Shown: positions 55,652-61,233 of the stretch, in pieces
Position numbering within the stretch: the stretch's first letter is position 1
Layout of the letters: every line of letters starts with the position of its first letter
Assembly (NCBI GenBank): GCA_963726785.1
Contig: CAVSDJ010000003.1
Coordinates: 345,878-409,877, forward strand
Length of the DNA stretch: 64,000 nt
Direction: 5' to 3'
DNA from: Blastocatellia bacterium
Lineage (GTDB): Bacteria; Acidobacteriota; Blastocatellia; UBA7656
The notes under the pieces: model-generated
Database searches by the model: none
The model's input: only the letters and a program-made list of their open reading frames with translations
What the model was told of the DNA's origin: nothing
Position numbers and translations under genes: made by a program

Positions 55652-55800
55652 ATTGTTGCGCGATACTTCAACCGATTAAATGCCGCAAGTGTTTTCCATT
55701 GCTCTTTCCAAGAATAGAAGGGCTTTGCAAAGTTTAATATGTCGAATCGCAATCAGCATATTATTTTCTTGACTCATTTAGTGAGTAATGATACAAGCGT
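55652..55800 (+). repeat. Cassette upstream region U-A (38-nt perfect repeat plus ~110 nt diverged homology with U-B)
   Basis: attgttgcgcgatacttcaaccgattaaatgccgcaag at 55652..55689 is identical to 57843..57880. The following sequence aligns at roughly 70% by eye. Confidence 0.9.
55769..55797 (+). promoter_or_regulatory. Promoter candidate for cassette A
   Basis: TTGACT (55769..55774), 17 nt, TACAAG (weak -10). Positionally homologous to the cassette-B promoter. Confidence 0.35.
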
Positions 55801-55869
55801 GATTGTTATTGTAATCTGATTTGCTTAATGTTCCAGTTAGTCAATTTCTCTTCCCTTCAAGGAGTTCCT

Positions 55870-56715
55870 ATGAAGATAAACAAGAACATTATTTCGGATT
55901 CAAAGCTTATCAACCTTATTTTTGCAGTCGTTTGTTTATTGATCTTAGTTTTCGGAATCTGGTCTCCTAAAGCATTTTCCAGCAGGAGCGTGTCTAATCA
56001 ACAAAAGCAGCCTCTCACTGATGGAGAGTATAAGACAATGATTGAGACACTAGACCCGAATAATGTCCCGATAAGAAATATGACACGAGCGGTCAGGATA
56101 ATCTCAATTGAAAAAATTGAGGGCGGGTCGTTGCGTCTAACACTTCAGAACGGTTATGACAAATGGATAAATGGAATTGAAATTTCGATGGTCAATGTAG
56201 GAATTCATGAAGAGCTTGGTTCCACCAGAGAACATAACATCCCCCCCGGTGGAACTTATGAGCTTGATTTGGGTATCCAGGAACACACTGATACAGATGG
56301 CATCGAGATTGCGGCAGTCATATTTGAAGATGGAACCGCAGACGGAAATCTTGAGTTTGTAAAACCTGTACAAGAGCAAAGATTGGGCGAGCGCGTGCAG
56401 TATAAACGCGCACTGGCTCTGATTCAAAAACACTTGGCCGAGCCGGATGCGGATACGGTAGAAGGGCTCAACAGATTAGAGTCTAAACTGCAATCACTAC
56501 CTGTTGATGAGGAATCTGGCAAAAGCAGTGATTATATGTATGGGTTAAAGCAGGCAAGAAATCTGCTGGTTGTGAGTATGCAGTTTATTCGAGAACAGAA
56601 GAATAGACCTGTTCGGAGTTTGCCGAATAATCAAAACGACCAGCCAGGTTTCTCTATTCGTACAGAGTTAAACAACCTATTCGATGACTTTAGAAAACTT
56701 GTTCCTGAATTCTGA
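55870..56715 (+). CDS. Cassette A gene 1: N-terminally membrane-anchored orphan protein
   Basis: ATG 55870 is preceded by AAGGAG (inside ORF 55828..56715). TM anchor [21 protein letters not shown]-rich codon usage and no family recognised. Confidence 0.65.
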
Positions 56716-57772
56716 ATATTCTATTAGCGACCTTTCTTTAAATGATTGCGTACCTAGAGCTGCAGAATATAAAGATGGTGAAGACTCTGGTCCTAGCTGC
56801 ACTAATATATGGAAAAGACTATATTGGGAGGTAACATTTCCTGATCTATGGTCTCAACGAACTGTTGCTACTGGGAACGGTGTTGGGAAATGTAATGTCA
56901 AAGATTATTGTTGCGAGCCACTTACATTTGACGCCATATGCTGGCCTTATTTTTTTACACCTGAAATTAGTCAGGGCCAATGGAAACAAGATGTCTATTC
57001 GGCGGTTATGAAGGTTCAAAATATAAACTGCGAAAGTCAATCTTGCCCAAATATCACTAAGGTTCTTGGTTGTGTTCCGCCACAGCAGTTACCTAAAAGA
57101 ACTTTCAGAGTACCAATAACAGGAGGATTACATAATTGTATCTTTATCGCTGAAGGTGGATGCGATTTTATATATTGTGGTACGGGGAAGCACCAAGACC
57201 CGGCGACTTGTCTATGCGTACTTGATAACCCACCCTCTCCAATTTTAATAGATATACTTGGCAACGGTTTCGACCTGACTAATGCTGACAACGGTGTCAA
57301 CTTCGACATCAACAGCGATGGAACCGCAGAACACCTTTCCTGGACTGCCGCCGGTTCTGACGACGCCTTTCTTGCTCTTGACCGTAACGGTAATGGCACG
57401 ATTAATACCGGAACTGAATTATTCGGTAATTACACGCCGCAGCCTCCTTCATCAAATCCCAACGGATTTTTGGCCCTCGCCGAGTATGACAAACCTGCAC
57501 ATGGCGGCAATAATGATGGAATAATTGATAACCGAGACGCTATCTTCTCGTCATTGCAGCTCTGGCAAGACACGAACCACAACGGCCTGTCTGAGCCGAG
57601 CGAATTACACGCTCTGCTGTCGCTTGGTTTGGCTAAGATGGACCTTGACTACAGAGAATCCCGGCGCACTGACCGATACGGAAATCAATTTAAGTACAGG
57701 GCGAAAGTAAGAGATGTGCATGGCGCTCAGCTTGGCCGGTGGGCGTGGGATGTATTCTTTGTCAACCAATAG
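56684..57772 (+). CDS. Cassette A gene 2: Cys-rich head plus conserved Ca-binding tail (paralog 2); no signal peptide seen
   Basis: 362-aa ORF overlapping gene 1 by 32 nt. 17 Cys in the head. The tail from ~57230 ([27 protein letters not shown]...[11 protein letters not shown]) is 97% identical to the cassette-B tail. Confidence 0.7.
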
Positions 57773-57791
57773 AACACTCAAGGCCAAGCAT

Positions 57792-58854: not shown

Positions 58855-58877
58855 TAATCTACAGTGAAGTGATTAAT

Positions 58878-60173
58878 ATGAAGTCTCGCCAAATTTTCAG
58901 TATTTATCAATTCTTGTCGGGTCTTATTTGCAGTTGGCTGATATTTTTCGGATATATTGATATAACAGCGCAGGCAAGTTGTCCCTCGACTTATCACCAA
59001 GGATGGGTAGCAAGTAGTGATATAGGCTATGTAACTACATTTACAGGTATAGAACTGAACAATATAGGCGCGGCTCTAAGTAGTTGGACATTTAATAATA
59101 CTACTCGATTAAATTGTTCAAACGTTAGCTTTTCTATTGTTACATCAGGGGCTCCGTTCACCATATCTAGTAACCCTGGTCAAGCCACAGGGCATTCCAA
59201 TTGGGCAGCAAGCACAAGTGTTGATTTACTTGATGGAAAAGCTTGGACGGCAACAACAATTTTTTGGTGGGGCGCGATAATTAGTGGAAGCACCCCTGCA
59301 GGGAATAGAAATATGTCGCCTGCTTATTATTCGTGTATAAAAAAAACAATGCTTCATGAAGCGGGTCACACTATGGGGCTTGATGACCTGAGTGGCTCCC
59401 AAACCGCGAGACAAACTGTTATGAATAACAGGTCAGGGACCAATGATAGTGGTAATAATATGCCTACTTCGGTACAGTTTTGCGACAACAGTTCAGTAAA
59501 TACCATTTTGCAATATACTAATAATTGCACCATTGGCGATGGCGGCGGCGGCGACGGCGGATGCGATTTTATATCTTGTTTTACGGGAAACCATCAGGAC
59601 CCGGTGACTTGTCAATGCGTGCCTGATAACCCACCTTCTCCAATATTGATAGATATTCTCGGCAACGGGTTTGACCTCACCAACGCCGACAACGGAGTCA
59701 ACTTCGACATCAACAGCGATGGAATCGCTGAACCTCTTTCCTGGACTGCTGCCGGTTCTGACGAAGCTTTTCTTGCTCTTGACCGTAACGGTAATGGCAC
59801 GATCAATGCCGGAACTGAGTTATTCGGTAATTACACGCCGCAGCCCCCTTCATCAAATCCCAACGGATTTTTGGCCCTCGCCGAGTATGACAAACCCGCA
59901 CATGGCGGCAATAATGATGGAATAATTGATAACCGAGACGCTATCTTCTCGTCATTGCGGCTCTGGCAAGACACGAACCACAACGGCCTGTCTGAGCCGA
60001 GCGAATTACACGCTCTGCTGTCGCTTGGTTTGGCTAAGATGGACCTTGACTACAGAGAATCCCGGCGCACTGACCGATACGGAAATCAATTTAAGTACAG
60101 GGCGAAAGTAAGAGATGTGCATGGCGCTCAGCTTGGCCGGTGGGCGTGGGATGTATTCTTTGTCAACCAATAG
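58878..60173 (+). CDS. Cassette B gene 2: secreted metzincin/snapalysin-like zinc-protease head plus conserved Ca-binding tail (paralog 3)
   Basis: ORF 58869..60173 (GTG), with ATG 58878. Signal peptide ...[21 protein letters not shown] (HExxHxxGxxD) at 59355..59387. Gly-rich linker [10 protein letters not shown]. Tail from ~59631. Confidence 0.75.
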
Positions 60174-60192
60174 AACACTCAAGGTTAAGCAT

Positions 60193-61233
60193 TCACGCTT
60201 TGACTAGCGAAACTGATTGCGAGCCTTCAATGACGCGGCCTACGAGGTAATGCGATTCTCCCTTCGCGTCCAGATGCGCGCGTACTCGTTCGGCATCCTC
60301 AGAGCTTGTGACCACGACCATGCCGATTCCCATGTTGAACGTGCGATACATCTCTCGCTCGTCCACGTTTCCGATTCGCGCAAGCAAATCATAAACAGGC
60401 AGCACGGGCCACGCGCCCAGGTTTATCTCGACCGCTGTGCCTGCGGGCAAGATGCGCGGAATGTTTTCCAACAAGCCGCCGCCTGTGATGTGAGCTAGCC
60501 CTTTGATCGCGCCTGAATCCAACAATCCGTCGAGCGCGTTCAAATAACTGCGATGCGGCTTCAACAATTCTTCCGCAGCCGTGCAGCCCAGTTCTTCAAC
60601 CCGCGTGTCCGGTTTGTAGCCCGCGACTTCAAACAACAACTTGCGCGCAAGGCTGTAGCCGTTCGTGTGAAGCCCTACGGACGGCAAGCCTATTGCGACA
60701 TCGCCCACTGCTATGCGCTTGCCGTCAATGACGCGCGAGCGATCAACTACGCCCACGATGAAGCCTGCGATGTCGTATTCGCCGTCCGTATAGAAGCCGG
60801 GCATCTCTGCCGTCTCGCCGCCGATCAGCGCGCAACCTGCTTCACGGCATCCGCGAGCAAGGCCTTCGACCACCGATGCGATTGTTTCAGGCACGAGCCG
60901 ACCTGCTGCTATGTAATCCAGAAAGAAAAGAGGCCGCGCGCCTTGAACCAGTATGTCGTTGATGCAATGGCAAACCAGATCGTAGCCCACTGTGTTGTGA
61001 ATGCCGGTCATGAACGCGATTCGAAGTTTCGTTCCGACCCCATCGGCTGAAGAGACGAGCACAGGCTCTTTCATTCCCGCAAAATCTGCGCGAAACATCC
61101 CGCCGAACGAGCCGATCTCCGTCAAGACGTTTGGGGTGAAGGTCGAACCGGCAAGCCGCTTGATTCGACTTACTGCATCGTTAGCTGCGTCAATGTCAAC
61201 GCCTGCGTCGCGGTAACTGAATTCTTCTTTCAT
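60193..61233 (-). CDS. purM: Phosphoribosylformylglycinamidine cyclo-ligase (AIR synthetase)
   Basis: YRDAGVDIDAAN, DGVGTKL, CINDILVQGARPLFFLDY, GGETAEMPG. 346 aa. Confidence 0.95.
   Translation of the reverse strand: MKEEFSYRDAGVDIDAANDAVSRIKRLAGSTFTPNVLTEIGSFGGMFRADFAGMKEPVLVSSADGVGTKLRIAFMTGIHNTVGYDLVCHCINDILVQGARPLFFLDYIAAGRLVPETIASVVEGLARGCREAGCALIGGETAEMPGFYTDGEYDIAGFIVGVVDRSRVIDGKRIAVGDVAIGLPSVGLHTNGYSLARKLLFEVAGYKPDTRVEELGCTAAEELLKPHRSYLNALDGLLDSGAIKGLAHITGGGLLENIPRILPAGTAVEINLGAWPVLPVYDLLARIGNVDEREMYRTFNMGIGMVVVTSSEDAERVRAHLDAKGESHYLVGRVIEGSQSVSLVKA

Follow-up and report, generated by a model that had tools for sequence, protein, structure and literature searches.

Head-to-tail cassettes with conserved ends and unrelated interiors between purM and a zinc-ribbon gene of a Blastocatellia bacterium

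Layout of the two units

Two two-gene cassettes, A and B, lie head to tail between purM and the gene of a zinc-ribbon membrane protein (ZnR) in a 64-kb stretch of DNA from a Blastocatellia bacterium (contig CAVSDJ010000003.1), the whole of which is referred to here as the window. In each cassette a gene 1 (g1A, g1B) precedes a gene 2 (g2A, g2B), whose product carries an individual N-terminal head on a C-terminal tail common to both cassettes and homologous to the Neisseria meningitidis FrpC self-processing module (SPM). Units A and B were delimited by listing of open reading frames (ORFs), repeat finding and blastn (Table 1), and were compared with loci of related genomes and assemblies, which are designated by L-numbers (e.g. 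L081). The original prediction for this DNA had proposed a candidate locus of cassette exchange, with conserved ends around unrelated interiors.

Permissive blastn of unit A against unit B, together with repeat finding, revealed an ungapped block of 690 nucleotides (nt) with 93.6% identity (57152-57841 and 59553-60242), in which a pre-tail linker and the SPM tail are followed by a spacer of 20 nt and by 49 nt from the 3' end of purM. Given that this purM copy (purM') extends to 57841, the gap between the units is 1 nt and not 7 nt as first described. The mismatch profile of the block is mosaic: approximately 7 mismatches per 40 nt, many of them three bases apart, occur at its 5' end, and identity to the copy is approximately 82-92% across 57152-57420; just 2 mismatches lie within 57446-57783 and 6 within the spacer and purM' stretch. 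At the protein level, the A and B tails differ at 5 of 177 residues, as near-identical as had been predicted. At the upstream end, 55652-55814 and 57843-58003 are 75.6% identical by blastn. Here the expected perfect 38-nt repeat was found in exactly two copies in the window, at 55652 and 57843, and the following stretch of about 110 nt, previously put at roughly 70% similarity, proved 70-76% similar and promoter-like.

Between these ends the two units have nothing recognizable in common. No similarity was detected by blastp between g1A and g1B or between head A and head B, hhalign gave a probability of just 0.55-2.6% for the family profiles of g1A and g1B, which are unrelated, and the two proteins have different predicted folds, NTR/OB in g1B and probably Ig-like in g1A. 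The predicted lack of relationship between the interiors thus holds at the blastp, profile and predicted-fold level. The GC (guanine plus cytosine) fraction of the cassettes is 0.38-0.46 and that of the flanks 0.51-0.58, i.e. approximately 10 points lower in the cassettes.

The promoter-like region, which in cassette A has a 17-nt spacer ending in TGA between its two boxes, is kept in both window cassettes and in L163, L164, L166 and L081. The TTGACT/TACAAG and TTGACT/TATAAA regions may act as cassette promoters. A consensus scan for promoters and terminators did not flag the cassette A region and gave no enrichment, and an Rfam scan of the region returned a chance snoRNA match only. The idea that the promoter-like region represents a cassette end used throughout the family was rejected, as nhmmer matches were confined to this locus apart from one weak match in L004.

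The 38-nt repeat had also been taken as a conserved cassette end. The repeat itself stands, but it is largely a conserved element of the flank. Its first 22 nt (the 22-mer ATTGTTGCGCGATACTTCAACC) are invariant upstream of the ZnR gene in all related genomes, including L083 with its empty site (window 55652-55673; L081 6434-6455; L083 1558-1579, minus strand; also L163, L164, L165 and L168), and are probably a regulatory element of that gene. The entire 38-mer is 100% identical in L163. The perfect identity of its two copies in the window thus reflects constraint as well as copying. Two further observations concern the ZnR gene itself: its product evolves far faster than its neighbours (65-84% versus approximately 95% amino-acid identity in L085, L086, L087 and L091), and in several empty-site genomes the gene is followed by a second, distant ZnR paralog.

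Table 1. Features of the cassette locus and a further SPM gene in the window (positions in the 64-kb window; a full stop in the strand column is given as in the feature list).
Feature	Position	Strand	Remarks
ZnR, zinc-ribbon membrane protein gene	54689-55606	-	Left flank; Pfam Zn_Ribbon_1; synteny in L083-L091
Unit A	55652-57841
38-mer copy 1	55652-55689	+	First 22 nt, ATTGTTGCGCGATACTTCAACC, are the conserved ZnR-upstream element
Promoter-like region of cassette A	55710-55814	+	TTGACT 55769-55774; TACAAG 55792-55797
g1A, partner protein	55870-56715	+	N-terminal membrane anchor, probable Ig-like beta-sandwich, helical tail
g2A	56684-57772	+	Cys-rich head (mature part ~56744-57235); Ser-Pro 57236-57241; SPM tail 57239-57772
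purM' fragment	57793-57841	.	Copy of the purM stop and last codons; marks the unit junction
Unit B	57843-60242
38-mer copy 2	57843-57880	+	Flank 22-mer plus 16 nt, fused to purM'
Promoter-like region of cassette B	57913-58003	+	TTGACT 57958-57963; TATAAA 57981-57986
g1B	58069-58854	+	Membrane-anchored, predicted NTR/TIMP-type OB fold; putative cognate of head B (inhibitor or binder)
g2B	58869-60173	+	Signal peptide (likely start 58878); metzincin-like head; Ser-Pro 59637-59642; SPM tail 59640-60173
purM (AIR synthase)	60193-61233	-	Right flank; the purM' copies derive from its 3' end
Third SPM-tailed paralog	59-1042	+	Different Cys-rich head, signal peptide; tail 72-74% identical to A and B

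A constant tail with variable heads and paired partner genes

The relationship of the tail to the FrpC module (FrpC residues 415-591) was established by phmmer against the PDB, with E values of 4e-23 and 2e-22 (6SJW/6SJX), and by a profile of 16 tails, which matched the FrpC SPM at E 7e-31 over chain residues 1-157 and placed an invariant proline on FrpC P415. More than 7,700 proteins were retrieved by a word-indexed search with g2A; every one has a precomputed PF26745 (SPM) assignment, and their N-terminal parts vary. Scans of the four cassette proteins against Pfam and NCBIfam, with a library that did not contain PF26745, gave nothing above threshold. An exhaustive phmmer search of 1.84 billion representatives at 50% identity put the family at 22,704 members, 15,204 of them at E<=1e-10. 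Given that the tail is approximately 70% conserved, this figure mostly counts different heads. The heads fall into many clusters, so that one constant tail is combined with numerous variable domains unrelated to each other. The SPM domain is C-terminal in each of the 150 top representatives, not internal as in RTX proteins secreted by the type I secretion system (T1SS); the gene-2 proteins start with Sec-type signal peptides, and the Pfam and NCBIfam scans detected no RTX-type domains on those of the window. The window holds a third SPM-tailed gene at 59-1042, of which any upstream partner gene would lie before the window start. At another SPM locus (L038, 5147-14040), two SPM genes of opposite orientation are surrounded by three to four copies (88-97% identical) of an element of approximately 900 nt.

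Protein ligation by means of the SPM is reportedly already in use (NeissLock). In FrpC, the module folds in response to Ca2+ and thereby cleaves the Asp414-Pro415 bond, and the resulting Asp anhydride ligates to lysines (PMC7078468). This scissile Asp-Pro is absent here: the proline is conserved, and the residue in front of it is Ser, Thr or Cys in 339 of 341 family members (Ser or Thr in 81 of 81 in one sample, Ser, Thr or Cys in 120 of 120 and in 138 of 140 in two others, with one Asp and one Glu as the remainder). Both window cassettes have Ser-Pro at the junction. The replacement of Asp-Pro by Ser/Thr-Pro makes the Asp-anhydride route of FrpC impossible in these proteins, and the strict conservation of Ser, Thr or Cys before the proline suggests a nucleophile. 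Across the family, CxC or CC motifs are common at a distance of 2-8 residues upstream of the Ser/Thr-Pro junction. Read against the published FrpC numbering (PMC7078468), the phmmer alignment indicates that, of the four EF-hand-like Ca2+ sites, the loops matching FrpC D462-E474 and D521-E532 are conserved, that the loop matching D499-D511 has a 5-residue insertion, that the first site reads D-x-L-x-N-G with loss of FrpC D421, and that several residues of the FrpC 'narrow port' are kept. The SPM was described in 2020 as exclusive to a subset of RTX proteins (PMC7078468), and the SPM literature that we found deals with that subset and the Asp-Pro site only; none was found on PF26745, on the SPM domain in Acidobacteria or on polymorphic toxins in Pyrinomonadaceae.

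Upstream of the tail, cassettes A (57152-57235) and B (59553-59636) have in common a Cys-rich linker of the pattern GGCDFI.C.TG.HQDP.TC.CV.DNPPS. Many family members that are otherwise unrelated also have this linker, at 70-88% identity.

In cassette B, the head displays the zinc-site motif HExxHxxGxxH/D of metzincins (59355-59387). While g2B itself scores below Pfam thresholds, two relatives of its head, P0033 and P0058, carry PF00413, PF13688 and PF12388 of the matrixin and reprolysin type. The g1B structure was modelled by AlphaFold2 with confidence (predicted local distance difference test, pLDDT, 89.4), and its best Foldseek matches are all of NTR/TIMP fold: the NTR domain of PCOLCE, TIMP-1/2, agrin NtA and the C345C domains of C3/C5. 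The OB domain lies behind a long N-terminal helix, and g1B is devoid of any cysteine, including the free N-terminal one that chelates zinc in TIMPs. The g1B protein may bind and neutralise head B, or tether it, at the membrane of the producer. The original prediction had not recognised the gene pair as any described system, which stands only in part, the tail being an FrpC-type SPM domain and cassette B a predicted pair of metzincin and TIMP-fold protein.

In cassette A, the g1A domain is probably an Ig-like beta-sandwich, the model being too weak for a fold assignment, and its profile is related to two other gene-1 clusters (hhalign 95-96%). Compared with L081, L163 and all homologs, g2A has suffered a 95-nt deletion that took out the ribosome-binding site, the ATG and the signal peptide (window 56741-56746; L081 9990-10087; L163 10878-10971). 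Its ORF is open solely by reading into the 3' end of g1A, the ORF start thus being an artefact of the deletion. The same deletion is seen in L167, a short-read contig from an independent assembly that matches 55660-57184 at 100% identity. Given the loss of the signal peptide, cassette A appears to be decaying and is probably being lost in the window genome.

Whether heads and upstream genes belong together was evaluated over 80 Blastocatellia/Pyrinomonadaceae loci and the window, in which 83 complete SPM genes were read. A gene of approximately 180-330 codons with an N-terminal hydrophobic anchor lies directly upstream in 41 of these 83. Membership in a gene-1 cluster is predictive of the head cluster (observed value reached in 0 of 10,000 permutations), i.e. 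the adjacent partner gene co-varies with the variable head. Genes of the TIMP-like g1B type pair in 12 of 12 cases with a single head cluster, in which 13 of 14 heads contain HExxH. Homologs were also seen elsewhere: one of g1B (70% identical) at L082 10001-10810, beside a Tricorn/PD40/S9 peptidase gene and without an adjacent SPM gene, and one of g1A (67%) at L169 509-1360, likewise without one.

This pairing would also be expected of an adhesion or anchoring device resembling that of Neisseria, in which the membrane lipoprotein FrpD binds the N-terminal fragment of FrpC with a dissociation constant of approximately 0.2 nM (PMC5233953); the head would dock on the gene-1 protein, and the tail would link covalently there or to another surface. 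The gene order of frpDC is the same as here and the pairing of gene 1 with head is strict. We nevertheless consider such a device unlikely, as no Asp anhydride can form without Asp-Pro, as the gene-1 profiles have no sequence similarity to any PDB chain, FrpD included, and as the NTR/TIMP folds given by the g1B model, next to a metzincin, point to inhibition. Gene 1 was for the same lack of PDB sequence relatives rejected as an FrpD-like gene.

Origin of the array at the purM/ZnR site

The survey of the ZnR/purM interval in relatives, which the original prediction had called for, revealed sites without any cassette, sites with just A, one with B'-A, and one in which a third B allele comes after A. 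In L083-L089 and L091, purM is directly followed by the ZnR gene. Cassette A alone, without any flanking repeat, is present in L163 (g1A 89% identical) and in L164/L165 (64%). On the 246-kb contig of L081, whose housekeeping proteins are 94-97% identical to those of the window, the order is flank-R-B'-R-A-purM, where R is a 108-nt purM 3' end in three copies (97.6-99% identical) that bracket each cassette, the leftmost in native position beside the flank. In L168, purM' of at least 314 nt is fused to the flank 22-mer and followed in turn by g1A, a g2A truncated after 56 codons, and a cassette B'' whose gene 1 and head are approximately 50% identical to those of the window's B. The window itself has cassette A, with its gene 2 lacking the signal peptide, then purM', the 38-mer, cassette B and purM. 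From the empty and single-A states it follows that cassette A beside purM is the older arrangement and that a B-type cassette was added or exchanged later; as judged from these sequences, the comparison demonstrates A as the older occupant of the site.

At the unit junction of the window, purM' is joined directly to ATTGTTGCGCGATACTTCAACC, the last 22 nt of the ZnR-side flank. Such a fusion is the joint of a tandem duplication, which supports the earlier proposal of copying in situ. The unit from 55652 into the purM 3' end was thus, by this signature, tandemly duplicated, leaving the purM'-flank joint behind. At least two apparently independent duplication joints exist at the purM/ZnR site. 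No relic of a purM fragment was found upstream of cassette A in the window, L163 or L164 by local alignment against shuffled sequences (p 0.44-0.88).

Could the tandem arrangement be an artefact of assembly, a chimera or a collapsed repeat of the alleles of two strains? The assembly is of metagenome type, and an assembler could be led astray by the repeats (360-690 nt, 94-99% identity). We regard this as very improbable, given that the junction, at which purM' is joined to the flank 22-mer and the latter to sequence specific to B, is unique in sequence and the window part of a 533-kb contig, that the independent samples L081 and L168 display tandem arrays at the same locus, and that L167 begins inside the 38-mer (55652-55689) and stops approximately 30 nt into the shared 690-nt block, as expected with both copies present.

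The divergence of the parts was then compared. Tails cluster by genome and not by cassette type: those of A and B are 95.5% identical in the window and 99.1% in L081, but approximately 67% between genomes. Within the window pair, the distal 340 nt are 99.1% and the proximal 180 nt 88% identical. The clustering by genome supports the predicted gene conversion of the tail. Synonymous divergence (dS) of the flanking genes is 0.23-0.29 between these genomes, the window and L163 among them, and about 0.27 as the divergence of the genomes; that of g1A is 0.13-0.34, which is compatible with vertical descent. For g1B and head B, dS is 1.1-2.3 in every pairwise comparison; compared with approximately 0.27 for the genomes, the B alleles are thus far older than the divergence of the genomes that carry them. 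The proximal A and B tails of the window have a dS of 0.52, with differences mostly at third codon positions, which exceeds the window-L163 genome divergence. The three B alleles in three genomes are mutually 44-74% identical within a framework conserved at 85-95%. For the window versus L163, the ratio of nonsynonymous to synonymous divergence (dN/dS) is 0.42 for g1A, 0.36 for head A, 0.06 for the tail and approximately 0.1 for housekeeping genes.

These data bear on an alternative in which A and B are ordinary old tandem paralogs: one pair duplicated, its interiors diverged beyond recognition and its ends constrained. Layout, promoter-like region and tail are indeed common to both units, and tandem SPM genes with tails just 78-84% identical occur in L012, L022, L025, L033, L047 and L049. 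This explanation is nonetheless largely refuted and retains hardly any probability: g1A and g1B have unrelated profiles and different predicted folds, each cassette type is found without the other at many further loci, later addition of B is evident from the empty sites and the single-A alleles, and the B alleles at the site have several times the dS of the flanks. The earlier exclusion of point divergence is upheld by the unrelated interiors, the proximal-tail dS and the divergent B alleles in a conserved framework.

A dedicated site-specific system could also have assembled the array, be it integron-like, Xer/dif-module-like or an integrase acting at gene 3' ends, with purM' as att-type repeats. 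Besides the three purM 3' copies bracketing the cassettes of L081, gene 3' ends are repeated beyond the cassette at three other loci, namely a comEC-like gene in L017 (190 nt; 7330-7519 / 10755-10944), uvrB in L073 (130 nt; 6818-6947 / 11012-11141) and a ChlI/ComM-like gene in L077 (487 nt; 7383-7869 / 12018-12504), and two different junctions at the purM/ZnR site share their flank breakpoint within 2 nt. On the other hand, no recombinase or transposase was found among the ORFs scanned between or beside the repeats (L017, L073, L019, L014, L008), nor any recombinase among the genes called around window-type loci. Repeat lengths and target genes differ at every locus, no conserved terminal motif was found, the upstream region is not conserved at other loci (nhmmer), and single-A alleles lack a flanking repeat. 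The repeats are accounted for by homologous recombination via a gene fragment that had been duplicated, and we judge a dedicated system improbable, slightly more so than the anchoring device discussed above. The 38-mer was considered as a dif/Xer-like site and rejected: its likeness to dif, judged by eye, is weak, no switch in GC skew marks a terminus or dif, and the 22-mer is the conserved ZnR-upstream element.

Taken together, we favour with a probability of roughly 0.6 that the region is a two-unit tandem array of recombining effector-plus-partner cassettes between purM and the ZnR gene, which belong to a very large family observed here in Blastocatellia. Gene 2 would encode a Sec-exported protein with a variable head, and gene 1 a membrane-anchored periplasmic protein specific for the head type; the SPM tail would fold on Ca2+ outside the cytoplasm and process or release the head at the Ser/Thr-Pro junction. 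After the tandem duplication, one copy would have lost its interior, from the promoter-proximal region through gene 1 and the head to the proximal tail, to a divergent B allele. The dS and clustering figures point to replacement by homologous recombination, for which the SPM tail and the upstream region provided the homology arms and the places of crossover, followed by homogenisation of the distal tail by gene conversion. The predicted sequence of tandem duplication, interior replacement and tail homogenisation is supported in this respect, and no dedicated recombinase would be needed. Once a tandem joint exists, the internal gene fragment could itself serve as a homology arm and carry a cassette into an empty site, which would produce the pattern seen in L081.

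Several points weigh against this reading or parts of it. The junctions of the window and L168 have the same flank-side breakpoint within 2 nt, while the purM side differs (window 55652-55654/57843, purM +49/60 nt; L168 ~198-200, purM +314 nt), which hints at either a hot spot or a shared ancestral joint with later deletion. A simple tandem duplication does not yield the leftmost purM' copy of L081 adjoining the flank, which would take an extra step such as recombination through the purM' copy into an empty site. The order of events may have been duplication then replacement, or alternatively import of a circularised or linear donor fragment. On the functional side, cleavage or ligation may not occur at all without Asp-Pro. 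The Foldseek match of g1B, although of probability 1.0 and E 2e-4, is modest as a fold match (target-normalised TM score 0.53-0.63), and the lack of cysteine renders the canonical TIMP mechanism of inhibition unlikely. The g1A structure model (anchor helix, sandwich, helices) is poor, with a pLDDT of 64.6, no Pfam or PDB relatives were found for the conserved Cys-rich domain of head A, and some gene-1 homologs (L082, L169) stand without an SPM gene.

A wider reading is possible, if rather doubtful: Blastocatellia may hold an undescribed and very large class of Sec-exported polymorphic effectors that combine a Ser/Thr-Pro variant of the SPM with neutralising partners. The SPM would then mediate Ca2+-triggered release or ligation by a chemistry other than the Asp anhydride, e.g. 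an N-to-O acyl shift, and the conserved tail would double as portable homology through which cassettes are exchanged between loci and genomes. A family of soil Acidobacteria that has members in the tens of thousands, with Ser/Thr-Pro invariant among them, points to a new chemistry of autoprocessing or else to a new function of the fold. One site seen empty, with a single cassette, duplicated and swapped, combined with strict pairing and fast evolution, further provides a testable model of how abundant and poorly studied soil bacteria could diversify a secreted arsenal through ordinary recombination.

Comparison with known systems

The closest parallel to the gene-2 tail is the FrpC SPM and its frpDC operon, with which it has in common homology over approximately 160 residues, the conserved proline on P415 and a gene for a membrane-attached partner immediately upstream of the SPM protein gene. 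It differs by Ser/Thr(/Cys)-Pro in place of Asp-Pro, by the position of the domain at the extreme C-terminus and by the Sec signal peptide; the partners of the window family are moreover unrelated to FrpD, and the heads number in the thousands.

In Rhs proteins, CDI (contact-dependent inhibition) 'orphan' modules and Maf islands, a constant module is combined with hypervariable effectors and an adjacent cognate partner in recombining cassettes. Similar to these, the cassettes described here are of low GC content, evolve fast, occur in tandem arrays and have a constant part that provides homology for swapping. Their polarity is reversed, however, with the variable part at the N-terminus, the constant part at the C-terminus and the partner gene upstream. 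Unlike the orphan modules of those systems, they are complete genes with their own putative promoters and with export by Sec only. Their products are putative effectors and neutralising partners, as the metzincin motif and the TIMP-type fold of cassette B indirectly indicate.

Serralysin, a secreted protease, is encoded beside its periplasmic inhibitor Inh/AprI. Listeria monocytogenes has a pair of metzincin and TIMP-like lipoprotein (PMC8235301). Cassette B resembles both in that a secreted zinc metalloprotease is predicted next to a membrane-attached or periplasmic protein of inhibitor-type fold. It deviates from them by the SPM tail of the protease and by a partner that is cysteine-free and anchored by an N-terminal helix, and it represents one type among many cassette types.

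Similar to integron cassettes and Xer-dependent dif modules, the units consist of one or two genes, stand head to tail and vary in content among relatives. Unlike these, they come with no integrase that we could find and no attC- or dif-like ends, have their own putative promoters, and are joined by duplicated pieces of neighbouring genes. The finding is best filed as an SPM-domain family without the defining Asp-Pro, combined with effector/partner arrays that recombine through their constant module.

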